A stretch of DNA of 64,000 nucleotides from Gammaproteobacteria bacterium. GTDB taxonomy: Bacteria; Pseudomonadota; Gammaproteobacteria; SZUA-140. The notes beneath the pieces are model-generated. The model saw nothing but the letters and a program-made list of their open reading frames with translations, ran no database searches and had not been told where the DNA came from. The stretch spans positions 139,268-203,267 of the forward strand of contig JADJQS010000008.1 in assembly GCA_016712635.1 (NCBI GenBank), written 5' to 3'. Every line of letters starts with the position of its first letter. Position 1 is the first letter of the stretch. Positions 6,414 through 22,114 of this stretch are shown one piece after another. The translations under genes and the position numbers were made by a program.

Positions 6414-7094
6414 ATGAACGTGAGTTTTGAACTGAATGCGCAAGTCCGTCACGACAGCGGGAAGGGAGCGAGCCGCCGCCTGCGCCGTGAAGGCAAGGTG
6501 CCCGCCATCATGTACGGCAGCGGGCAGCAGCCCGTGAGTCTTGTGCTGGACCATGACGCGGTGCGGCACAGCCTGGAGAACGAGGCCTTTTACTCGCACA
6601 TCCTCACCGTCAACGTCGACGGCCAGGCGGTGCAGGCGGTGCTCAAGGATCTCCAGCGCCACAGCTACCGTCCGATCATCATGCACATGGATCTCCAGCG
6701 CATCAGCGAGACCGAGGAACTGCGCATGCATGTTCCGCTGCACTTCATCGGCGAGGCATCAGCCCCCGGCGTCAAGCTGGGAGGCGGTATCGTTTCGCAC
6801 CTGGTGACGGACGTCGAGGTTACGTGTCTGCCCAGGCATCTGCCGGAATACCTCGAGGTGGACGTCAGCAGCCTGCAGCTGAACGAGACCCTGCATCTTT
6901 CCGACATCAAGCTGCCCGAGGGCGTCAGGATCATCGCGCTGACGCACGGGGCCGAGCATGACCTGCCGGTGGTGTCGATCCATGTCCCGCGCGCGGCCGT
7001 CGAGGCCGAAGCCGCACCTGCAGCGGAGGCCGTGGCGGCCCCGGCCGCAGGCGAGGCCAAGCAGGAAGGCGAGGCGAAGGGCGGCAAGGGCTAA
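6414..7094 (+). CDS. rplY: 50S ribosomal protein L25 / general stress protein Ctc
   Basis: [35 protein letters not shown]. The acidic/Ala-rich C-terminal extension is typical of Ctc-type L25. Confidence 0.9.
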
Positions 7095-7127: not shown

Positions 7128-7733
7128 TTGTCGGCGCCGATCGAAGTCATCGCCGGCCTGGGAAACCCGGGCGGCGACTATCAGGATACGCGCCACAATG
7201 CGGGTTTCTGGTTGCTCGACGATCTTGCGCGGCAACTCGGTGTCGAGTTCAGGGCGGAGCGCCGTTTCCATGCGGAGACGGCGCGCGCCGATCTGGACGG
7301 ACACCCCTGCCACTTGCTCAAGCCCGTCACCTTCATGAACCGCAGTGGCCAGGCGGTCGCCGCGCTCGCGCGTTATTACCGCGTTCCACTCGAGAGGATC
7401 CTGGTGGTGCACGACGAGATCGACCTGCCGCCGGGGATTGCGCGGCTCAAGCGCGGCGGCGGGCACGGTGGGCACAACGGGCTGCGCGACATAATCGAGG
7501 TGTTCGGCGGCGCGGCGGATTTCCTGCGCCTGCGCCTGGGGGTGGGGCGGCCGGCCAGCAGCGACGACGTGGTGAACTATGTGCTGCACGCACCCTCGGT
7601 TACGGACCGCGCCCTGATACGCACGGCGATCGACGATGCCATCGCGGTGCTGCCGCTAGTCGTGTCCGGTGAGGCCGGGCGCGCCATGAACCGGCTCCAC
7701 CGCCGCAGGGACGACAACGCAAAGCCGGAATAG
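7128..7733 (+). CDS. pth: peptidyl-tRNA hydrolase
   Basis: IAGLGNPGGDYQDTRHNAGFWLLDDLA. Matches the prs-rplY-pth-ychF synteny. Confidence 0.9.
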   Translation: MSAPIEVIAGLGNPGGDYQDTRHNAGFWLLDDLARQLGVEFRAERRFHAETARADLDGHPCHLLKPVTFMNRSGQAVAALARYYRVPLERILVVHDEIDLPPGIARLKRGGGHGGHNGLRDIIEVFGGAADFLRLRLGVGRPASSDDVVNYVLHAPSVTDRALIRTAIDDAIAVLPLVVSGEAGRAMNRLHRRRDDNAKPE

Positions 7734-7754: not shown

Positions 7755-8843
7755 ATGGGATTCAAATGCGGCATCGTCGGACTGCCCAACGTGGGCAAGT
7801 CGACGCTGTTCAATGCGCTGACCAAGGCCGGCATCGACGCGAGCAACTATCCGTTCTGCACCATCGAGCCGAACGTGGGCGTGGTCCCGATGCCGGACCC
7901 GCGCCTGGCGGCGCTCGCCGCCATCGTCAGGCCGCAGCGCGTGCTGCCGACCACCATGGAGTTCGTCGACATCGCGGGTCTGGTGGCCGGCGCCTCCAAG
8001 GGAGAGGGGCTCGGCAACAAGTTCCTGGCGCATATCCGCGAGACCCAGGCCATCGCCCATGTGGTGCGCTGCTTCGAGAACGACGACATCGTGCACGTCG
8101 CGGGCCGGATTGATCCGCTGGCGGACATCGAGACGATCGATACGGAACTGGCCCTGGCGGATATGGAGACTGTGGAGCGCGCACTTGAGCGTATCGCGCG
8201 CCAGACCCGCAGCGGGGACAAGGAGGCCCTGGCGCGGCAGGCCTTGCTGGAGAAACTGCGCGCGCATCTCGATACTGCGGCACCGGTGCGATCCCTGGGA
8301 CTGGGCGACCAGCTGGACAAACTGCAGGATCTGCACCTGTTGACAGCCAAGCCGACGATGTACATCGCCAACGTGGCGGAGAACGGCTTCGAGAATAATC
8401 CGTTGCTCGACCGCGTGCGCGCCTTCGCCGCGGCGGAAGGCGCCGAGGTGGTGCCGGTGTGCGCGGCGATCGAATCCGAGATCGCGGAACTGCCGGATGA
8501 GGAAAAGGCGGAGTTCCTCGCCGACCTGCATCTGGACGAGCCCGGCCTCAACCGGGTGATCCGGGCCGGTTACCGCCTGCTGAAGCTGCAGACCTATTTC
8601 ACCGCCGGTGAGAAAGAGGTGCGCGCCTGGACCATTCCGGTCGGCGCCACCGGCCCGGAGGCGGCCGGGGTGATTCACACGGATTTCCAGAAGGGTTTCA
8701 TCCGCGCCGAGGTCATCGCCTATGCCGATTTCATCGCCTGCAATGGCGAGCAGGGCGCGAAGGAGGCGGGCAAGTGGCGCCTGGAAGGCAAGGAGTACAT
8801 CGTCCAGGACGGCGATGTCATCCACTTCCGGTTTAACGTCTAG
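7755..8843 (+). CDS. ychF: redox-regulated ATPase YchF (Obg family GTPase)
   Basis: [23 protein letters not shown] and a C-terminal TGS domain. Confidence 0.93.
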
Positions 8844-8973
8844 GCGAGGAGGCTGTCGGACGGTAATCTAAAAAAGAAAAGTCGACGACCCGGCCGTTTC
8901 GTACTTGTCGCGCTGCGAGCGAATTCGGTATGATTATCTGCCGCTTTCCTCTCTATCCTTCGCACTGCATTCC

Positions 8974-9050
8974 GGCTATGTAGCTCAGTCGGTTAGAGCA
9001 CAGCATTCATAATGCTGGTGTCCCTGGTTCGAGTCCAGGCATAGCCACCA
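8974..9050 (+). tRNA. tRNA-Met (elongator, anticodon CAU)
   Basis: GGCTATGTAGCTCAGTCGGTTAGAGCACAGCATTCATAATGCTG...GCATAGCCACCA closely matches E. coli metT-type tRNA. Confidence 0.9.
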
Positions 9051-9510
9051 TCTTTCCATCCGAATAATGGCTCATGGCATCGGGCGCATGCTGCCGTTTG
9101 AGAATCAGGTTCTCAGGCGGCGCCATGAGCCCATGCGGATAGCGCCTTCTCATGTCCGCGCGACGCGCTTCCAGCCTGTGGTTTCAGATGTTCATCGCAG
9201 TAGCTCCCGGGGAAACGACGTTGTCGGCTTACAGTAAATTCGCTTTGTTCACGGAGGAATGCCTGGCATTTCACAACGATGTTCCGGTGGGGCGTGGTGC
9301 TGGTGGTGCTAGAGGTACACCGCTGATCGCCACGCCACCCTGTGTTCAAACGTCCGGGTCTCAATGCCTCATACATAGCGCGATTGACAGGCGCGGATCG
9401 TGAATGTGGCTTCTTATTGATATCTAAAAAAATTGATCCGATGTGCAAAATTCATTGATATTTAAGAAACTAACAATGTGCAAAAATTATGGAGAAATTA
9501 AGGAAAAACT

Positions 9511-9540
9511 TTGACTGCAATCACCAATTGTGATTAAACT
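9511..9540 (+). promoter_or_regulatory. putative sigma70-type promoter (TTGACT-17-TAAACT) with an operator-like inverted repeat AATCAC-N5-GTGATT (9519-9535) in the spacer; upstream direct repeats aATGTGCAAAAtt at 9441-9453 and 9475-9488
   Basis: AT-rich 300-bp leader between tRNA-Met and the first secreted-protein gene. The motifs were read directly from the sequence. Confidence 0.3.
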
Positions 9541-9722
9541 TGCCCTGAGTGTCTGGTCGGAAGGCGGTTCTGAGCGATTCCCCGGATGGAAGGTTGTGTA
9601 GCCCAGTGTTGCGCATGCACTCGGTTTCTCAGGGAGGTTTCTCATTAAGGACAATATAAGACACTGTTATATATATAATTTATAACAGTTTCTGCTCATA
9701 ATATATTCATTGGGAGAGACAA

Positions 9723-10745
9723 ATGAAGAAACTAACTTCTCTGTCCTTGGCGCCAGCCGCGATTTTCATCAGCGGCGCTGCCATGGCGGCACCGATCGGT
9801 GGCTACGACGCGTGGACGGTTAACGCGGGTACCATCACGGCGACCTGCCCGGCGGGCCATACGTGTTCCAACCTGGATGCCACCGGCAACGGCATTCTGC
9901 AGCAAAAGATGGTGGACAACGCTGACACCACCGTTTCCTACTTCCGTACCATCGTAGTCGACGAAGGCACCACCGCGACGGACCTGGCCTCGGTACAGGC
10001 CCTGGGTTTCCGCGTTGAAGGCCAGATCGGCATCGACGGCGGCGGCGGCAACAACTACACCAACCGCAGCGTGATCAAGGGCGGCTCGATCCTGGGCAAC
10101 GACCAGATGTCGACCATGGCCGAAGTCAACAGCGGCGCCCTGCAGGCGGGCAGCCTGGCCCCTGTCGTATTGGACCAAGAGCAGGGCCTGGGCTCGACTG
10201 CCCGTCGCATGGACTGGCATTTCCATGAGAACGGCGTGCACTACCTCGAGTTGAACGCCTACTCCTCCGGCGGTGTTGCCGGCGGCGGCACGGGCAACGA
10301 GGGCGCCATCACGGTGCGTCGTTCAGGCAACCTGACCCTCGGCGGCACCCTGACGCTGGATCCGAGCATCACTGAAGGTTCCCAGACCTTGGCCTATGCG
10401 GCCGGCAACTCCGTCACGGCGGTGTGGCTGACGCAGGCGGCCTCGGGCGTCGGTTCCTTCACGAACCGGACCCTCGGTCTGCAGCGCTATACCGTGGTGA
10501 CGGGCGCAGGCGGTCCCAAGACCAACGTCGGCGGCACCTCGATCGACGCGAGCAACAGGGATGGCGCGGGTAACTTCGCGATCACCCTGAATGCCACCGG
10601 CTCCGAGATCAGCGGTACGCAGTTCGGCTGGAACAATGCCCTGTTCGGTAACACGCCCCAGGAGTACTTCACCAACTCGCTCAACAGCGCGTTGGCAGCT
10701 CCCCCGGCGCCGGGTACCTACACCAATGACTTCGTCATTCCCTAA
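9723..10745 (+). CDS. secreted Gly/Thr/Asn-rich protein, paralog A (Sec signal MKKLTSLSLAPAAIFISGAAMA)
   Basis: Good RBS (GGGAGAGAcaaATG). N-terminal conserved module W-V-N-AGTIT-C...C-LDATG-GILQQ...VSYFRTIVVDEG is shared with the downstream paralog. No recognisable family. Confidence 0.7.
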   Translation: MKKLTSLSLAPAAIFISGAAMAAPIGGYDAWTVNAGTITATCPAGHTCSNLDATGNGILQQKMVDNADTTVSYFRTIVVDEGTTATDLASVQALGFRVEGQIGIDGGGGNNYTNRSVIKGGSILGNDQMSTMAEVNSGALQAGSLAPVVLDQEQGLGSTARRMDWHFHENGVHYLELNAYSSGGVAGGGTGNEGAITVRRSGNLTLGGTLTLDPSITEGSQTLAYAAGNSVTAVWLTQAASGVGSFTNRTLGLQRYTVVTGAGGPKTNVGGTSIDASNRDGAGNFAITLNATGSEISGTQFGWNNALFGNTPQEYFTNSLNSALAAPPAPGTYTNDFVIP

Positions 10746-10769
10746 CGACGCCTAGACAGGAGAGTAATC

Positions 10770-11699
10770 ATGAATCGCAAATATATAGCTTTGGCGATGG
10801 CGTCCGCGGGAGGGTTGCTGATTTCGGGTTCAGCCCTGGCGGGTTCCGCCGCAGCACACAATGCACCATTGAGCTTTGACCAGTACTCGGTCACCAACGG
10901 CACCATCACCGATACCTCGGTTGAGTGCGCCTCCACGTGGACCTGCGTGTCCCTGGATGCCACCAGCCCCGGTTTGCTGATGCAGCAGGTCACCGATCCG
11001 GGTAACGGCGTCTCCTTCATCCGCACCATCGTGGTGGAAGAGAACGCGAACGGCACGACGGCTGCGGGCCTGACGTTCTGGCAGGAAGCCCAGACGTATG
11101 CCAGCGGTGTCCTCAACAACAACATTGCCTTGACACAGGGAATTGTGGATGGCGGCATGGACTTCCGCGTCGACATTTACGAGCAGGCCTTCCGTACGGA
11201 CGGGGATATCTCCATCCCGACCAGCGGCGGCGGCGGCGCGGAGATGTACATGAACCAGACGATCGCCACGGCCGGTCAGACCTTCCAGCAGGATGGCGTG
11301 AACGGCAACGCGCGTCAGCGCATCGACCAGGTCCAGGGCACCAACCCGGGCAAGTTCACCTATGCCTCCATCGACGGCGCGGCGTTCATGCCGACCGTGG
11401 GCGGTACGCTGGGTGGCACGGTGATGCCGGCGCTGGCCTATGCCTCGACGGACGGCATCAGCGTGGTGTGGATCGGTGCGGATCAGCCGGGTAACTACGC
11501 GGCCTCGCTGCGTCAGTTCGGTTACCAGGAATTCCGCAACTGGGGTTCGATCGCGGTGACCGCTCCGGGCACCAACGTCGCGGCCGGCTCCTCGAGCTAC
11601 ATGGCGCAGGGCCCTCTGGGCCAGTTCACCGCCAACGGCTCGTGGGACTGGGATGCGGCGCTGTGGGATCTGGGCGCTGCGCCCTCCGGCCCGCCCTGA
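10770..11699 (+). CDS. secreted Gly/Thr-rich protein, paralog B (signal MNRKYIALAMASAGGLLISGSALA)
   Basis: RBS AGGAGAG. Shares YSVTNGTITDT...SLDATSPGLLMQQVTDPGNGVSFIRTIVVEE and a ...SVVWIG segment with paralog A. Confidence 0.7.
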   Translation: MNRKYIALAMASAGGLLISGSALAGSAAAHNAPLSFDQYSVTNGTITDTSVECASTWTCVSLDATSPGLLMQQVTDPGNGVSFIRTIVVEENANGTTAAGLTFWQEAQTYASGVLNNNIALTQGIVDGGMDFRVDIYEQAFRTDGDISIPTSGGGGAEMYMNQTIATAGQTFQQDGVNGNARQRIDQVQGTNPGKFTYASIDGAAFMPTVGGTLGGTVMPALAYASTDGISVVWIGADQPGNYAASLRQFGYQEFRNWGSIAVTAPGTNVAAGSSSYMAQGPLGQFTANGSWDWDAALWDLGAAPSGPP

Positions 11700-11787
11700 T
11701 CGTAGTTTTGTAGCAGTACGGGTCGCAGTCTGACCCAGGATATATCATCCCAAAGATATATCCGCGTTAGTGGTAGCAACGTCAGTT

Positions 11788-11815
11788 AGGGGGGGCATTG
11801 CCCCCCCTTTTTTTG
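11788..11815 (+). terminator. rho-independent terminator (AGGGGGGGcattgCCCCCCCTTTTTTT)
   Basis: Perfect G7/C7 stem followed by a T-run, directly after the paralog B stop. Confidence 0.8.
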
Positions 11816-12015
11816 TTTCCGGTTTCCTGCGACTTACCGAAATCCTCCAGATGCACCGGGCTGAAACGGGGTGCGATCCTCCATTCTGCGCATCGAGGTA
11901 ATGGGGAGGATAAGTATCTATCCCGTCAGGACCGGCGCGTGCAATACCGTTCGAAGCGGCCTGGATGACGGCTTCTCCGGCTCATGTGAGCGATACGACT
12001 GGCTCGCGGGTTGAT

Positions 12016-12297
12016 TTACAGACGCAGCAGATTCAGTATGCGCAAGCCGCCGCCTTCAATGACCTCGTAGGATACTTCCACCATATCGTTGACCGAGAGA
12101 GGGATCAGTGATTCCCGGGATGCGATGAAACGGATCGGCGCTTGCGACTCGGCGTCAAGGATGACGAAGGTGTTGCCGGCCCGGTCGATGGACACGATGT
12201 TGCCCATATGCATATTCTCGCCCAGGCTGTCGCAGGCGTTCGCCGGACCTGAAGCAAGCAGGACGGCGGATAACAGTGCAGCAGTTGAATATTTCAT
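12016..12297 (-). CDS. small periplasmic protein (signal peptide), possibly CusF-like / stress-response β-barrel
   Basis: MKYSTAALLSAVLLASGPANA signal. Strong SD (GGAGGA) 7 nt upstream of the ATG. Contains an MHM motif. Divergent from a BaeSR-like two-component system. Confidence 0.6.
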   Translation of the reverse strand: MKYSTAALLSAVLLASGPANACDSLGENMHMGNIVSIDRAGNTFVILDAESQAPIRFIASRESLIPLSVNDMVEVSYEVIEGGGLRILNLLRL

Positions 12298-12507
12298 GAC
12301 TTGATCCTCCATGGGTTGGCCCGGTCTGCCCCAGATTAACCCCATGGAGCATCATTCGCCAAGCCGCTGCGCCATCTCTATGGCGTTCCAGGTGGCGGTT
12401 CAATAAACTGATGCCATGTACGTGAAATCGCACGCCGCGTGTCTGCATCTGGCGCCGTATCGGCGTGCGCACCTCATTGGATACCCGCGCCTTTCCTGCA
12501 AGCGTGT

Positions 12508-13956
12508 ATGAATCTGTCGATACGGCATAAGATCTTCCTGATATTGCTGTTATCGATCGGTCTCGTGGTGACGAGCATGACGGTGCTGATGACCTGGTCG
12601 CTGGAGCAGGTATTCGTACGCTTCATCGATGGTCAACAGCAGACGAGGATTCAAGGCATCGCGCAGCGCATCGAGAGGGAATACATCGAGGGTAGCGGCT
12701 GGGAGCGTCTCGATGAGAATCAGCTTCTGTGGGCGCAAATGCTGCTCGGGAACATCGATAATACGGTACAGCACCGTCCCGAGCTGTTCACGCCATCATC
12801 CACAGGGCACGCCGAGATCGTCCGGGACCGTGATCTGCTGCTGGCCCAAATCAAGCTTACCGAAGGCGGCTTTCTGCAGGCGGACCGCCGGGTCATGCTG
12901 CTCGACGCGGACAAATCGATCATCTACGGCGAGCCCGAGCTGGCGGACCTGCTTACCCTGCGTCCGATCACCGTCGACAAGCGCACCGTCGGCTACCTCG
13001 GAGTACTGCCCGGACCGTCGCTGGCGGACCTGAGCGCAGCCCATATACTCGACCAGCAGACCGACGCCTTCGCGTTCATTGCGCTGACGGTGATGCTGGT
13101 ATCCGCGCTGCTGGCCTACGCGTTTGCGGACCGCCTGATACAGCCATTGCGCGCCATTACCGAAGGTTCGCACGCCCTGGCGGCCGGGCATTACGATTCA
13201 CGCGTCCCGGTCCGGGGTTCGGATGAGCTGGGCCGGCTCGCACGGGATTTCAACAGCCTCGCCGAGGCGTTGCAGCACAACGAAGGGATACGCCGCCAAT
13301 GGGTTGCGGACATCTCGCACGAAATACGCACGCCGCTGGCTGTATTGCGCGGGGAACTCGAGGCCCTGCAGGACGGCGTGCGGTCACTGGATAGCAAGGC
13401 GGTCAATTCCCTGCATGGGGAAATCCTGCGCCTTAATCGCCTGGTGGACGATCTTTACGAGCTGTCCATGACCGATCTCGGCGCCTTGCAGTACCGCAAG
13501 ACCTTGGTGGATCCCGTCGCCATCCTGCTCGACGACCTCAAGTCGCACACCGAAGAGTTCCGCGCCGTCAATATCGATGTCACGCTGGAGAACCGGCTTG
13601 CCGAGGCAATATCCCTCAGCGCGGACCCGGACAGGCTGGAACAGCTGTTCTACAACCTGCTGGGCAATACGCTGCGCTATACGGACGCCGGTGGCCGCCT
13701 GCTGATCCGGGTGAGCCGGGACGAGCAGCAACTGATCCTGGATTTCATGGATTCCGCGCCGGGTGTTCCGGAGGAGGATATGCCGCGCCTGTTCGACCGG
13801 CTTTACCGCGTCGAGTCCTCCCGCAGCCGTGCCTTCGGCGGTGCGGGACTCGGGCTGGCCATTTGTCGTAATATCGTGCATGCCCATGGCGGGACCATCT
13901 CCGCGCAGACTTCCAGCCTGGGCGGACTGTGGGTGCGTGTCACGCTGCCTCTGTAG
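12508..13956 (+). CDS. two-component sensor histidine kinase, BaeS-like
   Basis: N-terminal TM region, HAMP, and an H-box VADISHEIRTPLAVLRGELEALQDGVR that closely resembles BaeS. HATPase motifs are present (GAGLGLAICRNIV). Confidence 0.85.
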   Translation: MNLSIRHKIFLILLLSIGLVVTSMTVLMTWSLEQVFVRFIDGQQQTRIQGIAQRIEREYIEGSGWERLDENQLLWAQMLLGNIDNTVQHRPELFTPSSTGHAEIVRDRDLLLAQIKLTEGGFLQADRRVMLLDADKSIIYGEPELADLLTLRPITVDKRTVGYLGVLPGPSLADLSAAHILDQQTDAFAFIALTVMLVSALLAYAFADRLIQPLRAITEGSHALAAGHYDSRVPVRGSDELGRLARDFNSLAEALQHNEGIRRQWVADISHEIRTPLAVLRGELEALQDGVRSLDSKAVNSLHGEILRLNRLVDDLYELSMTDLGALQYRKTLVDPVAILLDDLKSHTEEFRAVNIDVTLENRLAEAISLSADPDRLEQLFYNLLGNTLRYTDAGGRLLIRVSRDEQQLILDFMDSAPGVPEEDMPRLFDRLYRVESSRSRAFGGAGLGLAICRNIVHAHGGTISAQTSSLGGLWVRVTLPL

Positions 13957-13968
13957 GAAAGGATCGAA

Positions 13969-14715
13969 ATGAATGACGTGAGCTCTCAACGGATACTGGT
14001 GGTCGAGGACGAGGACAAGCTGCTTCAGCTGCTGCAGGACTATCTCGCCGACGCCGGGTTCACCCCGTCCGGGCTCAGGGACGGCAAGAAGGTGATCCCG
14101 TGGGTGCGCGAGCACAAGCCGGATCTCATCCTGCTGGACATCATGCTTCCCGGCCAGGACGGCCTGGAGATCTGCCGGGCGATACGCTCCTTCAGCCAGG
14201 TGCCGATCATCTTCATCACCGCGCGGGTGGAGGAGATCGACCGCCTGCTGGGACTGGAACTGGGCGGGGACGACTATATCTGCAAGCCGTTCAGCCCGCG
14301 CGAAGCCATCGCGCGCATCAAGGCGGTACTGCGGCGGCTGGCGGCCGCGGAGCATCCCGCCGCCTCTTCCGGAAATATATTGTCGCTGGACCTGAACAGC
14401 CACCGTGTCTGGGCGGGAGAGCGCAGCGTGGTGCTCACCACGGTCGAGTTCAAGCTGCTGGAGACCCTCCATCGCGAACCGGGCCGGATATATTCCCGCG
14501 CGTACCTGATGGATCGCATCTACCAGGACAGCCGAATCGTTTCCGACCGCACGATCGACAGCCATATCAAAAAGCTGCGGAAAAAACTCGCAGCCCTGAT
14601 CCCCGACATGGAGATCATCCACTCGGTGTACGGCGCGGGATATCGTTACGAGCCCGTAGCTTCCGCGGGGGATACATCCACAAATCACAAGGATACAGCC
14701 GAGGTTTCACGATAG
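13969..14715 (+). CDS. OmpR-family response regulator, BaeR-like
   Basis: RILVVEDEDKLL...LILLDIMLPGQDGLEICRAIR...ICKPFSPREAIARIKAVLRR plus a winged-helix C-terminus. Confidence 0.88.
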   Translation: MNDVSSQRILVVEDEDKLLQLLQDYLADAGFTPSGLRDGKKVIPWVREHKPDLILLDIMLPGQDGLEICRAIRSFSQVPIIFITARVEEIDRLLGLELGGDDYICKPFSPREAIARIKAVLRRLAAAEHPAASSGNILSLDLNSHRVWAGERSVVLTTVEFKLLETLHREPGRIYSRAYLMDRIYQDSRIVSDRTIDSHIKKLRKKLAALIPDMEIIHSVYGAGYRYEPVASAGDTSTNHKDTAEVSR

Positions 14716-14889
14716 TTACCGATTCTTTCCCGAATTCATGCGCAGTCCGCCCGCATCCTTGCACTGGTCACGGCGGACGCCATTCGACCTGCGACTCACG
14801 ACGAGTCATCGTCAATCCCTCTGAGGGCAGCTCACCGATTGTCCGCCTGAACATCCCAGCAACCGCGTCAGTAGAGCGGGGATCAGGCC

Positions 14890-15516
14890 ATGATCGATTA
14901 CAACCGGCGGCTTCTGTTCGTCCATATCGCCAGGACCGGCGGCACGAGCATCGAAACCGTGTTCGCCGGCATCGACTGGTGCCATATCGATCTGCCGACG
15001 AAGCACCTGTCCGCCGCGCAGGCGCGCGCCTGCTACGGTGAGGAAATCTGGAACAGCTTCACCAAGTTCACCGTGGTGAGAAATCCCTGGGACAGGCTGG
15101 TGTCCATGCGGGCGGCGGGATCATGGTGCTTCGATGAGCGGTGCGCCCGGGGCTGTGACATGAAGGCATTCCTGGAGCAGCTCAGGCCGCATCCGAACGA
15201 GAGGTATCAATCGCTTTTCTATCACGAGGTGATTGATGAAAAACTGGACCACGTGCTCCGCCATGAATCCCTGCAGCAGGATCTGTCGCGCATGTTGATG
15301 GGCCGGGGGCTCGCGCCCGTCGTCCTGCCGCATGTGGAGGCCACGCGCAGGGAACACTACAGCCGCTATTACACGCCGGAGTCGGCGAAGATGGTCAGGA
15401 CGATGTTCAGGACGGACATCGACGACTACGGTTACCGCTTTGAGCTGGCCACTTTCGCGCGGGACGCCGCCAGCGGTCCCCTGTCACGGTATCCCGGCAT
15501 GCTCTCGGGCGCCTGA
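14890..15516 (+). CDS. sulfotransferase family protein
   Basis: LLFVHIARTGGTSIE (PAPS-binding 5'PSB-like motif) and RNPWDRLVSM (3'PB motif), characteristic of the sulfotransferase family 2/3. Confidence 0.65.
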   Translation: MIDYNRRLLFVHIARTGGTSIETVFAGIDWCHIDLPTKHLSAAQARACYGEEIWNSFTKFTVVRNPWDRLVSMRAAGSWCFDERCARGCDMKAFLEQLRPHPNERYQSLFYHEVIDEKLDHVLRHESLQQDLSRMLMGRGLAPVVLPHVEATRREHYSRYYTPESAKMVRTMFRTDIDDYGYRFELATFARDAASGPLSRYPGMLSGA

Positions 15517-15582
15517 CCGCGCCTCTCACCGTCGATCTCCCTCAGAATCATTTACAGGCAACGGTGCGCAATTTAGCAAGGG

Positions 15583-16566
<984 letters not shown>

Positions 16567-19678: not shown

Positions 19679-22114
19679 TTACTTGATGCACACCGTGCGT
19701 ACGGTGTGCAGGTCGGTGATGCCCTGGAGCACCTTCTCGATACCGTCCTGCTTCAGGGTGCGCATTCCCTCCTGCAGGCCCAGCGCCAGCATCTCCGAGA
19801 CCTGGGCGTGATCCAGGATCTGCTTCTTGAGGGCGTTGGTCGCGTAGAGCAGCTCGTGGATGCCGAGCCGGCCTTTGTACCCTGTGTCGTCGCAGGTCTT
19901 GCAGCCCTTGGGGTGGTAAAGCGTGAACTTGCCGTTCGTGGTGAACTTCTCCCGCCATTCCTTCAGCACAGTGTCGTATAACGCCTGTTTCTCGTCCTCC
20001 GGCGCTGTGGGCGCAACCAGCTCGTAGCAGTATTCCGCGACCATTTCCCGGATTTCCTCCTCCGTCGGCTCGAACGGTACCTTGCAGGCGACGCACAGGC
20101 GCTTGGCGAGGCGCTGGGCCAGGATGCCGATCAGGGCGTCGGCGAAGTTGAACGGATCCATGCCCATGTCGAGCAGGCGGGTGACTGTCTCCGGCGCCGT
20201 GTTGGTGTGCAGGGTGGACAGCACCAGGTGGCCGGTGAGCGAGGCCTCGATGCCGATGCTGGTGGTCTCCTTGTCGCGCATCTCGCCGACCATGATGATG
20301 TCGGGGTCGGCGCGCAGGAAGGAGCGCATCGCCGCCGCGAAGTTGAAGCCGATCTTCGGCTTCACTTCCACCTGGCGCAGGCCGCGCTGGGTGATTTCGA
20401 CCGGGTCCTCCGCGGTCCAGATCTTCACGTCGGGTGTATTCAGGTATCCGAGCACGGAGTGCAGCGTGGTCGTCTTGCCCGAGCCCGTCGGGCCGCACAC
20501 GAAGATCAGGCCGTAGGGTTTGGAGATCATGCGCTTCAGGGCGGTCATGTTGCGCTCCGACAGCCCGATCTTCTCCAGCGGCACCGGCTCGCCGCTCGCC
20601 AGGATGCGCATGACCACGTCTTCCATGTCGGCCGCCGTCGGGATGGTGGCGACGCGCAGCTCGATCTTCAGCATGCCGAATTTCTTGAAGTCGATCTTGC
20701 CGTCCTGCGGCTTGCGTTTCTCCGAGATGTCGAGTTCGGCCATGATCTTGATGCGCGCGACCACCGCGCTGCGCATCTTGGCCGGGATCTCGTAGTAGTT
20801 CTTCAGGTCGCCGTCCTTGCGGATGCGCACGATGGTCTTCTTCTTGCCCGGATAGGGTTCGATGTGGATATCGGATGCGCCCTGCTGGTAGGCATCGATG
20901 ATGATCTTGTTGACCAGCTTGACGATGACGTTGTCCTGCACCGAGGTCTCGCCGTATTCCTCCTCCTTGCCGTCCTTTTCGGTGTCGTCATACCCGAGGG
21001 TGAAGTCGTCGAGCGACTCGCTTTCGATGGCGGACATCGAGTACAGCGTCGTGATGGTGTGCTCGATCTCCTCCTTCGAGGCCATCACCGGCTCGACATA
21101 CAGGTTGGAATGGAAGCGCACGGCGTCGAGCGCCTCGCGGTCCATCGGGTTTTCCAGCGCGATGACCAGCTTGTTGTTGAAGTAGTGCACCGGCACGATG
21201 CCGTGCTTGCGCACCAGGTCCTCGGGGATGTACTTGATCGCCTCCGGGTTGATCTTGAACTTGCCCAGGTCGATGAACGGGATGCCGAGCTTTTCGGACA
21301 GGGCCTGCATGATCTCGCCCATGTTGATGGTGCCGAGCTCCATCAGCACCTGGCCGATCTGCATGTTCTTGCCCTGGGTGCGGTACAGCTTCTGCGCCTC
21401 CAGGGCGTCGTCGAGATTCTGCTGCGTGATGAACTTTTCCTTCACCAGGATTTCGCCGAGGCGTAGCTTGGGGGCCGCCTTGTGGTGGCGGAGCACCTCC
21501 TCCAGCGCCTCGGTGGTCTCGACGTTCTTCAGCGCGGCGGCGTGCACCTCGGCCGAATCATCCACTAACGGCACCTCCACCGCCTCCGCCACCTCCGCCG
21601 CGGCGTCGGCCGGCGCCTCCGCGGGCGTCAGGCGATACTGCTCCGTCGAGGTGTGCGGCACGAAGGCGTGGCAATAGCGCTGGTTCGGCAGCATGGGGTA
21701 CAGGTAGAGCCCGCCGGCATCGCTGCGGTATCCGAGGGTGACGTCCGACAGCGTGCTGCCATCCTTCAGCTCGATCCGGTACTGGAGGATGCGCGAGCCC
21801 TGGTTGGCGGGTTGCGCGGCCTTTTCCGGCGCGAGCTGCTCCGGCGCCCACGCGCGCGGTTGCGGGAGCTGGAAATACCTGAACCTGGTGAAGGCGATGT
21901 CCTGGGTCGCCCCGCCGTCGACGGCGACGGAGATGGATTTTTCGTCGCGCTGGAACTTCTGCAAAGTCCCGGAGAGGGTGGTGCCGTCATGCAGGACCAG
22001 CTCGATCTGCTCCCCGGCCTTGAGGGCATTCTTGATATCGATCTCCGCCAGCGGTGGCGGCAGGATCGGAAGGATATGGCTGGGCTTGAGCTTCTGTGCC
22101 GGGGACGATGACAT
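19679..22114 (-). CDS. GspE/PilB/MshE-family secretion ATPase with c-di-GMP-binding MshEN-type N-domain and an additional roughly 220-aa N-terminal extension
   Basis: C-terminal Walker A (GPTGSGKTT), Asp/His boxes and tetracysteine region (CVACK...CKTCDDTGYKGR). The T2SSE_N region has two MshEN-type motifs (RLGEILVKEKFITQQNLDDALEAQ; QIGQVLMELGTINMGEIMQALSEK). The extra N-terminus carries two related modules (IELVLHDGTTLSG...; IELKDGSTLSD...). The true start is uncertain. Confidence 0.8.
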   Translation of the reverse strand: MSSSPAQKLKPSHILPILPPPLAEIDIKNALKAGEQIELVLHDGTTLSGTLQKFQRDEKSISVAVDGGATQDIAFTRFRYFQLPQPRAWAPEQLAPEKAAQPANQGSRILQYRIELKDGSTLSDVTLGYRSDAGGLYLYPMLPNQRYCHAFVPHTSTEQYRLTPAEAPADAAAEVAEAVEVPLVDDSAEVHAAALKNVETTEALEEVLRHHKAAPKLRLGEILVKEKFITQQNLDDALEAQKLYRTQGKNMQIGQVLMELGTINMGEIMQALSEKLGIPFIDLGKFKINPEAIKYIPEDLVRKHGIVPVHYFNNKLVIALENPMDREALDAVRFHSNLYVEPVMASKEEIEHTITTLYSMSAIESESLDDFTLGYDDTEKDGKEEEYGETSVQDNVIVKLVNKIIIDAYQQGASDIHIEPYPGKKKTIVRIRKDGDLKNYYEIPAKMRSAVVARIKIMAELDISEKRKPQDGKIDFKKFGMLKIELRVATIPTAADMEDVVMRILASGEPVPLEKIGLSERNMTALKRMISKPYGLIFVCGPTGSGKTTTLHSVLGYLNTPDVKIWTAEDPVEITQRGLRQVEVKPKIGFNFAAAMRSFLRADPDIIMVGEMRDKETTSIGIEASLTGHLVLSTLHTNTAPETVTRLLDMGMDPFNFADALIGILAQRLAKRLCVACKVPFEPTEEEIREMVAEYCYELVAPTAPEDEKQALYDTVLKEWREKFTTNGKFTLYHPKGCKTCDDTGYKGRLGIHELLYATNALKKQILDHAQVSEMLALGLQEGMRTLKQDGIEKVLQGITDLHTVRTVCIK

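Follow-up and report, generated by a model that had tools for sequence, protein, structure and literature searches.

Tandem genes for predicted secreted, beta-rich proteins beside tRNA-Met and the linkage of their family to an Ame-like envelope export cluster

The A-B locus and its transcript

This work describes a two-gene unit within a 64,000-nucleotide stretch of DNA from an uncultured gammaproteobacterium (contig JADJQS010000008.1 of assembly GCA_016712635.1; the whole stretch is referred to here as the window, and coordinates given without a locus name are positions in it). Gene A (9723-10745, forward strand) encodes a precursor of 340 amino acids (aa) and is preceded by the ribosome-binding site GGGAGAG; gene B (10770-11699, forward strand) encodes a 309-aa precursor and is preceded by AGGAGAG. 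A spacing of 24 nt separates the two open reading frames (ORFs), and both ribosome-binding sites are strong. A first-pass annotation, made from the letters alone, had reported two tandem genes for Sec-signal proteins at these positions, and the ORFs, their ribosome-binding sites, and their Sec-type N termini bear this out. We find that the family to which A and B belong has a conserved linkage to an Ame-like envelope export cluster. The main interest of the locus lies in this link between family and exporter, the function itself being something that we infer. The locus in the window is a native and probably highly expressed bicistron and not an island.

Upstream of the promoter, the AT-rich DNA carries two direct repeats (9416-9493, forward strand). 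The repeat ATGTGCAAAA, present twice as had been annotated, occurs in exactly two copies, at 9441 and 9476 (35 bp from start to start), and a second repeat, ATTGATAT, occurs at 9416 and 9454. The 10-mer pair is not significant alone, as two or more matches at ≤1 mismatch turn up in 42 of 100 shuffled versions of the window. The heptamer TGTGCAA is found upstream of the -35 box twice in the related locus L001 and once in L009, at other spacings, which leaves the direct repeat partly conserved. The repeat region may represent an UP element or an activator site. It is followed by a sigma-70-type promoter candidate detected by a consensus scan (TTGACT-18-TAAACT, 9511-9540, forward strand); the promoter named in the first-pass annotation is thus present, with a spacer of 18 nt and not 17. 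Three orthologous leaders (the window, pair 1 of L001, and L009), when aligned, have identical -35 elements, TTGACT, and similar -10 regions. The inverted repeat AATCAC-N5-GTGATT was also found as described, at 9519-9535, inside the promoter spacer. It is missing from the L001 ortholog and partly kept in L009; as an operator it was rejected because it is not conserved, and it probably arose by chance.

The putative 5′ untranslated region (UTR) spans ~175 nt (9547-9722, forward strand) and includes conserved blocks, a hairpin, and the ribosome-binding site of gene A (9712-9718). From 9547 to the start codon, these blocks are strongly conserved among the window, L001, and L009. One conserved, TTTCTC-containing element, GGTTTCTCA, occurs twice, at 9623 and 9636. 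The two copies, 13 bp apart, complement GGGAGAG, to which they are paired in the predicted fold; they might sequester the ribosome-binding site or serve as a response-regulator site. A 9-bp hairpin, ACTGTTATA-N9-TATAACAGT, lies at 9663-9689, ~35 nt before the start codon. Its arms and its distance from the start codon are kept while the loop length varies (7 nt in pair 2 of L001), and it is also present in L018. Since the arms are kept with a variable loop, the element fits an RNA hairpin better than a dimer operator. Folded as a whole, the 5′ UTR is no more stable than shuffled sequences (z = -1.0), and a stem at its 5′ terminus is weakly supported by two compensatory pairs in the three sequences compared. 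The proposal of a structured leader was accordingly rejected overall; what remains is the conserved hairpin and, possibly, the 5′ stem. In the interval 8800-12100, Rfam identified the tRNA only.

The 3′ UTR (11700-11818, forward strand) is structured and conserved. It consists of three hairpins (11720-11736, 11738-11763, and 11764-11782) and an intrinsic terminator at 11788-11808, whose 9-bp G+C stem and T run agree with the strong terminator previously noted at the end of the unit. The predicted folding energy is -45.2 kcal/mol (z = -4.57), and 0 of 200 shuffles are as good. Five copies of this 3′ UTR have 34 base pairs in common, 4 of which show compensatory changes, and a covariance model built from the element matches only behind A-B pairs of type I, i.e., those beside BaeSR-like genes. 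The 3′ UTR could be a stabilizer of the mRNA or a 3′-UTR-derived small RNA.

On the left, the conserved neighbor of the unit, lying outside it, is tRNA-Met (CAT) at 8974-9050 on the forward strand (ARAGORN; Rfam, 72 bits), where the first-pass annotation had placed it. Upstream of the tRNA are rplY (6414-7094), pth (7128-7733), and ychF (7755-8843). The same tRNA-Met is also found 3′ of ychF in L001, and in L009 rplY-pth-ychF stands directly upstream of gene A. The gap between tRNA-Met and gene A measures 672 bp (9051-9722) and holds no credible gene. It had been described as an AT-rich noncoding stretch of ~650 bp; its noncoding character stands, while the AT richness is confined to the 3′ half, as only 9400-9700 is AT-rich (GC content of ~0.38 compared to ~0.65 in the surroundings). 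Over 9250-9700 the GC content ranges from 0.38 to 0.45, that of the genome being ~0.65. The first part of the gap, 9051-9400, is a variable noncoding spacer with a GC content of 0.55 to 0.58, without conservation and without assigned strand, and a blastn search of it against all fetched related loci gave zero matches. Similarity between the window and L001 stops right 3′ of tRNA-Met; at this point the window has 350 bp of unique noncoding DNA, and L001 (3868-7416) has three extra genes, encoding a DUF3015 protein, an Lnb_N/DUF7843 protein, and an alpha/beta hydrolase.

On the right, a small ORF with a signal-peptide-like N terminus lies on the reverse strand between B and the kinase gene (12016-12345), and its membership in the unit is uncertain. 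Its counterpart at this position in L011 shows 60% identity over 98 aa; in L001 no counterpart was detected, and a Pfam scan of the ORF gave no match. Two conserved neighbors and candidate regulators follow on the forward strand, a BaeS-like histidine kinase (12439-13956) and a BaeR-like response regulator of the OmpR family (13969-14715). Their best NCBIfam matches are BaeS (416 bits, with an equivalog cutoff of 500) and BaeR (296 bits, with a cutoff of 380), and the same two neighbors occur in L001 and L011. Judging from this arrangement, a BaeSR-like envelope-stress system may tune the A-B copy of the window. Beyond the regulator, up to ~16200, two ORFs match the sulfotransferase-like and flavin mononucleotide (FMN) reductase genes of L001. 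An MshE-like ATPase of the type II secretion/type IV pilus group (MshEN and T2SSE domains) is encoded at 19679-22114 on the reverse strand, 8 kb downstream of B. A similar ATPase gene is found on the reverse strand at L037 1-1099, 9 kb upstream of a fused member of the A/B family, and the presence of such an ATPase near both loci is probably a coincidence.

The first-pass annotation had further suggested that the pair was acquired at the tRNA, a proposal at odds with composition and gene order. The G+C content at third codon positions (GC3) of A and B is 0.82, equal to that of rplY, pth, and ychF. In A and B, CGT makes up 0.38 to 0.40 of Arg codons, GGT 0.24 to 0.29 of Gly codons, and GGG plus GGA 0 to 0.10; the other 12 genes sampled from the window use CGT at 0 to 0.23 and GGG plus GGA at 0.08 to 0.57. 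Such a codon choice is expected of highly expressed genes in G+C-rich proteobacteria. Together with the strong ribosome-binding sites and the structured 3′ UTR, it suggests that A and B are highly expressed. The 25-mer at the 3′ end of the tRNA has no second copy in the window at ≤3 mismatches that could represent an att repeat, and no integrase is evident at 9051-16200, judged by gene order and synteny and not by scanning the ORFs individually. The order rplY-pth-ychF-A-B is common to the window and genome SJ336 (L009), A-B-small ORF-kinase-regulator to the window and SJ243 (L011), and A-B-kinase-regulator to the window and IPM20 (L001), although L001 has the pair in duplicate, separated from the tRNA by three other genes. 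From this conserved synteny, the variable point lies on the tRNA side of the A-B-kinase-regulator block. A genomic island at the tRNA was rejected on the grounds of GC3, the tRNA-end repeat search, and synteny. The pairs of other genomes are found among quite different housekeeping genes.

Proteins A and B and their family

Both proteins carry Sec-type signal peptides (A, MKK...AMA|A; B, MNRK...ALA|G) with signal peptidase I sites and no Cys at position +1. The mature proteins are ~32.4 kDa with an isoelectric point (pI) of 4.6 for A and ~29.4 kDa with a pI of 4.05 for B. They are acidic and Asn-rich, with Gly, Thr, and Ala together making up 36 to 38% of residues, Lys only 0.4 to 0.9%, and two Cys each. 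In A, Cys42 and Cys48 are invariant across homologs; of the corresponding pair in B, one Cys is invariant and the other is at least 90% conserved. Q61, E99, and Q152 are near-invariant or invariant polar residues throughout the family. In a public annotation of a metagenome-assembled genome (MAG), the protein IPK65_11565 (P0005) is 100% identical to the product of gene A but is 278 aa long; it apparently starts at Met63 and thereby drops the N-terminal part encoded at 9723-9908, with the signal peptide and the Cys module that are present in all homologs. For B, the protein collection holds no exact copy, and the best match has 93% identity.

A direct comparison of A and B by BLASTP covers the N-terminal third only (E = 2e-11). 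When profiles are compared instead (hhalign), the alignment extends over 273 columns, i.e., the full length, with a probability of 99.8% and an E value of 7.5e-30, and on this sequence evidence A and B qualify as full-length paralogs. The two proteins had been described as sharing an N-terminal module and otherwise divergent and of low complexity, which does not hold: they are well conserved along the whole alignment and are modeled as folded, all-beta proteins. The AlphaFold2 (AF2) model of A is an all-beta meander with a mean predicted local distance difference test (pLDDT) score of 69.8 and a predicted template modeling (pTM) score of 0.63. That of B is likewise an all-beta meander, with a pLDDT of 58, confident at residues 30-190 and poor in the C-terminal half. 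Each model contains ~20 predicted antiparallel strands. The C termini are Pro-rich (A, ...NDFVIP; B, ...APSGPP), the terminal Pro of A being invariant across homologs. Neither C terminus has an outer-membrane beta-signal, with its alternating hydrophobic residues and aromatic end. In Pfam and NCBIfam scans, A and B match no PEP-CTERM, LPXTG, RTX, or lipobox model, in line with the absence of known sorting signals already noted, and no S-layer (surface layer), SLH, pilin, or adhesin model; no hydrophobic C-terminal segment is present in either protein.

Word-indexed searches retrieved 40 homologs of A and 29 of B at 45 to 93% identity, plus one more match to A at 31%. All of these are named only "hypothetical protein," have no Pfam domain, and stem from metagenomes or MAGs labeled Gammaproteobacteria; every relative whose source was looked up came from an uncultured bacterium. 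To define the family, we ran an exhaustive HMMER search with a combined A+B profile on representatives of 50%-identity clusters, which gave 362 clusters at E ≤ 1e-3, 222 at E ≤ 1e-10, and 30 at E ≤ 1e-30. A word-indexed search with a diverse profile returned 14 proteins only, and a contig scan of genomes, which used a narrow pattern, recovered only the close clade. Most family members are signal-peptide proteins of 280 to 420 aa. Recurrent motifs are A-P-P-x-x-F-D-x-W-x-V-x-x-G-x-I, the Cys pair, G-x-G-F-L-Q-R, Y-x-Q-T-I, F-x-D-E-x-F-V, G-W-A, and a C-terminal W followed by an F-G-x-x-P tail, with F or P as a frequent last residue. Many relatives end in ...FG-x-A-P-x-F.

The first-pass annotation could not assign the proteins to any family and proposed profile and structure searches as a check; carried out on both proteins, these produced the all-beta models and matched no known family or fold. 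Pfam and NCBIfam scans returned 0 families for A and B at E ≤ 10. Among 66 diverse members, no Pfam or NCBIfam family was found beyond three isolated one-member matches near the threshold: Lustrin_cystein (Pfam, E = 0.0038), choice_anch_C (NCBIfam, E = 4.8e-4), and Myxo_Cys_RPT (NCBIfam, E = 0.0077). Profile searches of the PDB with A, B, and family alignments gave nothing significant, and Foldseek searches of the PDB and BFVD gave nothing at E ≤ 0.001. The best, insignificant Foldseek matches were OccK/OpdK, TOM40, VDAC, and OmpG (TM-score ≤ 0.25, E ≥ 0.087); other weak matches were the beta-supersandwich enzymes OpgG, YgjK, heparinase, and amine oxidases. Ten distant representatives are all metagenomic and carry no protein name.

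About 35 among the matches listed are proteins of 650 to 765 aa with two complete family domains in tandem. Both halves of these fused relatives are more A-like, which points to an independent domain duplication, and the fused relatives were therefore rejected as a strict Rosetta stone for A plus B. In L036 (9270-15526), a 672-aa fused member is followed by a 787-aa NHL/FlgD_ig protein, a Big_9/Cadherin_5 protein, and a 222-aa protein, with a transposase gene upstream. L037 (10001-14530) has the same upstream genes as L036, and the gene after its fused member runs into the contig end. In another variation, 35 matches to the Cys-pair module (profile positions 27-65) are found in a Cys-rich metagenomic protein of 2,809 aa (P0123), which may be built of repeats of this module or be a compositional artifact.

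Linkage of the family to exporter clusters

We compared the genomic contexts of distant family members by tblastn with neighbor proteins. Considering loci with enough flanking DNA to be informative, an exporter cluster lies downstream of the family gene, and in the same direction, in 8 of 9 distant loci: L019, L021, L022, L026 (partial), L029, L033, L034, and L035 (a variant). The sole exception is L020, in which the cluster was not found. The gene order in these operons is family gene, terminator-like hairpin, LolA_like/DUF1329 gene, gene for a 136- to 166-aa protein, DUF1302 gene, MMPL-type resistance-nodulation-division (RND) pump gene, gene for a ~300-aa protein, and tetratricopeptide repeat (TPR) protein gene. 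Each distant operon carries a single family gene as its first gene, and strong terminator-like hairpins separate it from the LolA-like gene in four of them. A terminator after the first gene is the usual layout for an abundant first product and a less abundant machine, and by analogy it suggests the same here. The association with the exporter spans the whole family, from ~25% to 85% identity.

The components of the cluster can be characterized to different degrees. The LolA-like protein, which is periplasmic, matches LolA_like with an E value of 2.5e-46, and the 136- to 166-aa protein has weak ribbon-helix-helix (RHH) and zinc-ribbon matches. For the RND pump, the best model is HAE3, and HpnN- and MmpL-type models also match, all of them below their curated cutoffs. 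The TPR protein, of 890 aa, has subthreshold matches to the PrsT, PgaA, and BcsC models. The ~300-aa protein (L019 16530-17576, L021 7786-8685, and L008 3319-4275) has no significant match in Pfam or NCBIfam (best E value, 0.028) and ends in ...TLYY, ...TVYF, or ...NLYF, a canonical beta-signal of outer-membrane proteins. This set recalls AmeABCD of Castellaniella defragrans, which comprises a DUF1302 barrel, a DUF1329 LolA-like protein, a COG4447 protein, and an HAE3 pump and has been implicated in the export of hydrophobic compounds (PMC6394551). Based on its C terminus, the ~300-aa protein is probably a second outer-membrane barrel, in the position of AmeC (COG4447). Homology between this protein and the A/B family was tested and rejected. 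In two operons, a gene for an O-methyltransferase (Methyltransf_2 plus dimerization domain) lies between the family gene and the LolA-like gene (L022 9040-10050 and L029 3491-4501), an insertion that hints at a methylated small-molecule cargo.

In the clade of the window, the family occurs as A-B pairs. In each of the 17 complete pairs seen, A precedes B, and duplications involve the whole pair: two A-B pairs occur in L001 and three in both L002 and L006, always alternating, with intergenic gaps of ~0 to 45 bp in these arrays (stop codons counted). Three types of locus can be distinguished. Type I lies beside BaeSR-like genes (the window, L001, and L011). Type II is divergent, beside the LolA-like/DUF1302/MMPL/300-aa/TPR cluster (L008, which equals L015; L016; L002; and L006, which equals L014), and L002 and L006=L014 are the loci with three tandem pairs. 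Type III lies near corC/rimP-nusA (L003, L007, L012, and L013). All three types occur in SJ243. SJ336 has types II and III and, in addition, L009 beside ychF, on a contig that stops short of the kinase position. Both genomes thus possess a cluster-adjacent A locus and at least two dispersed A-B loci. In this clade, one A-B locus per genome lies beside the exporter cluster, and the others, like that of the window, are dispersed. Behind the triple arrays (L002 14368-15779 and L006 16380-17857) are genes for a 197- to 198-aa protein without Pfam match and a Peptidase_M10 metalloprotease.

Proposed function and relation to known systems

The reading that we favor, tentatively and with rather less than even confidence, is that A and B form an abundant pair outside the cytoplasm that works with an Ame-like exporter. 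One stable bicistronic mRNA would yield A and B in large and roughly equal amounts, and both would be exported by Sec. They would then assemble into an A:B hetero-oligomer located at the cell surface or in the outer envelope, as suggested by the invariant pairing, the duplication as a unit, and the independent tandem-domain fusions. This oligomer would be the abundant extracytoplasmic partner of the Ame-like HAE3 exporter, most likely as acceptor, carrier, or organizer of a hydrophobic substance moved outward by the pump, the LolA-like protein, and the DUF1302 barrel. A hydrophobic cargo is favored because the HAE3 pump, the LolA-like protein, and the O-methyltransferase point to a small hydrophobic substrate. 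The adjacent BaeSR-like system may tune the window's copy.

Several points weigh against the proposed partnership. Gene linkage is no proof of physical or functional interaction, and tblastn with the cluster proteins finds no exporter cluster in the 64 kb of the window, so that an exporter elsewhere in this genome is presumed from related MAGs only. The fused two-domain relatives adjoin NHL/FlgD_ig and Big_9/Cadherin proteins, and no RND cluster is found at L036 or L037. The AF2 models are only moderate (pLDDT of 70 and 58). The consensus scan finds a second promoter-like site at 9679-9707, and the suggested BaeSR link draws on synteny in close relatives only and on matches below equivalog cutoffs.

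Alternatively, A and B could be subunits of a self-assembling surface structure, such as a coat, an S-layer-like sheet, or a fibril, with the cluster as its secretion and assembly machinery and thus an undescribed route of protein export. Acidic proteins poor in Lys and Cys and rich in Gly, Thr, Asn, Ala, and beta structure would suit such a role, albeit without being specific to it, as would codons that suggest high expression, two UTRs that could stabilize the mRNA, tandem arrays of as many as three A-B pairs, and the presence of three or more loci per genome. The layout of first gene, terminator, and machine genes resembles pilin and fimbrial operons; the TPR protein and AlgE-like barrel recall polymer-export and Slam-type outer-membrane translocons; and a secreted Peptidase_M10 is encoded behind the pairs in L002 and L006, and the fused relatives adjoin Cadherin/Big-type surface proteins. 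However, the substrates known for RND/HAE3 pumps are lipids and small hydrophobic molecules and not folded proteins (PMC6394551), and the O-methyltransferase genes in two operons point to a small-molecule cargo. At ~30 kDa, A and B are also small for S-layer proteins and match no S-layer, pilin, or adhesin model and no fold, all of which makes a surface structure doubtful. In a related proposal, which we consider unlikely, the A/B proteins would themselves be what an undescribed outer-envelope pathway transports, or its major subunit, perhaps carrying a methylated lipid. We give equally little credence to the corresponding division of labor, in which the LolA-like carrier, DUF1302 barrel, HAE3 pump, second barrel, and TPR scaffold would deliver or assemble an abundant beta-rich surface protein.

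Other explanations separate the pair from the exporter. If the exporter link were only historical at this locus, A and B would act on their own as secreted or periplasmic proteins, such as envelope-stress proteins belonging to a BaeSR-like regulon or beta-sandwich proteins that bind or degrade carbohydrates. The type I loci (the window, L001, and L011) always have the BaeS/BaeR-like pair and no exporter nearby, those of type III lie among housekeeping genes, the weak Foldseek matches include OpgG, YgjK, heparinase, and amine oxidases, and the polar residues Q61, E99, and Q152 are invariant or nearly so. Against such independence, which we regard as quite unlikely, the BaeSR synteny is limited to close relatives (kinase identity of at least 71%), the Foldseek matches are uninformative (TM-score ≤ 0.25, E > 0.08), and the exporter association is family-wide, from ~25% to 85% identity. 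There is still less to recommend a pair of porins, i.e., integral outer-membrane beta-barrel channels. The signal peptides, the ~20 antiparallel strands predicted in a meander, the top (insignificant) Foldseek matches to OccK/OpdK, TOM40, VDAC, and OmpG, the ...FG-x-A-P-x-F ends of many relatives, and high-expression signals typical of porins agree with it, but the Pro-rich tails of A and B lack the aromatic-terminal beta-signal that the ~300-aa cluster neighbor has. The TM-score to barrels is ≤0.25 although the model of A reaches a pTM of 0.63, no outer-membrane-protein Pfam model matches at E ≤ 10, and a conserved N-terminal module bearing a disulfide is atypical of porins. Least probable by far is a cell-surface cassette acquired at tRNA-Met with an operator of its own, composed of the spacer inverted repeat and the direct repeats. 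The tRNA adjacency, AT-rich leader, and repeats are indeed present, and the boundary 3′ of the tRNA is variable, with three extra genes in L001. Yet GC3 and codons are native, there is no att-like repeat in the window and no integrase evident among the neighboring ORFs, A-B and the kinase/regulator genes are conserved beyond the variable point, the inverted repeat lacks conservation, and in the shuffling test the 10-mer pair does not exceed chance. Synteny and composition thus largely refute the acquired cassette.

The proposed partnership with an Ame-like exporter bears on a wider problem. Clusters of DUF1302, DUF1329, and HAE3-RND genes are widespread in Proteobacteria, have pleiotropic fitness phenotypes, and are tied to hydrophobic-compound tolerance and outer-membrane vesicles, while their substrate and mechanism are still unknown. 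A DUF1302/DUF1329/BNR/RND cofitness group was proposed to export an envelope component (bioRxiv 10.1101/072470), and nanopod and vesicle preparations of Delftia contained DUF1302 and DUF1329 proteins (PMC3110197). A 2026 paper describes DUF1302 as an AlgE-like barrel of 18 strands and as still functionally dark (PMC13499233). A secreted family of 362 clusters, missing from Pfam and NCBIfam, heads a distinct operon subtype and so provides a candidate partner or cargo. If the cargo or subunit reading were true, a subtype of the long-uncharacterized DUF1302/DUF1329 systems would have its first concrete substrate. The linkage also places in context abundant genes annotated as "hypothetical" in uncultured gammaproteobacteria of wastewater and sediment.

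The closest described systems are the AmeABCD-type exporters and the DUF1302/DUF1329/COG4447/COG1033 cofitness cluster (Castellaniella defragrans, Shewanella, and Pseudomonas). AmeABCD and the clusters linked to our family have the DUF1302 barrel, the LolA-like/DUF1329 protein, and the HAE3/MMPL RND pump in common. AmeABCD-type systems have no counterpart of the A/B family, and where they encode a Ycf48-like propeller of COG4447, the linked clusters encode the unrelated ~300-aa outer-membrane barrel. The linked clusters additionally contain the large TPR protein and the small RHH/zinc-ribbon-like protein. In the literature, we found no described cluster subtype with the A/B family or the TPR protein. 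The window itself differs from AmeABCD in having the A-B pair only and no exporter.

Parallels for other parts of the arrangement come from better-known operons. In Escherichia coli, BaeSR is an envelope-stress two-component system encoded in mdtABCD-baeSR; there as here, the regulatory pair lies directly downstream of envelope- or efflux-related genes, whereas in the window the kinase gene is separated from A-B by a terminator and the small ORF on the opposite strand. The TPR protein encoded with an AlgE-like barrel is reminiscent of the AlgK/AlgE, PgaA, BcsC, and Slam modules. The linked clusters differ from these in that the TPR similarity is generic and below cutoffs, no polysaccharide synthase is encoded nearby, and an RND pump is present. 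A terminator or hairpin between the gene for an abundant first product and those for its machinery is typical of malEFG-type operons of ATP-binding cassette (ABC) transporters and of pilus operons in which the major subunit comes first. Although A and B have no sequence or fold relation to binding proteins or pilins, and the machine is of the RND type and not an ABC transporter or usher, the linked operons follow the same plan: the family gene comes first, then a strong hairpin with a T run, and then the genes for the membrane machinery.

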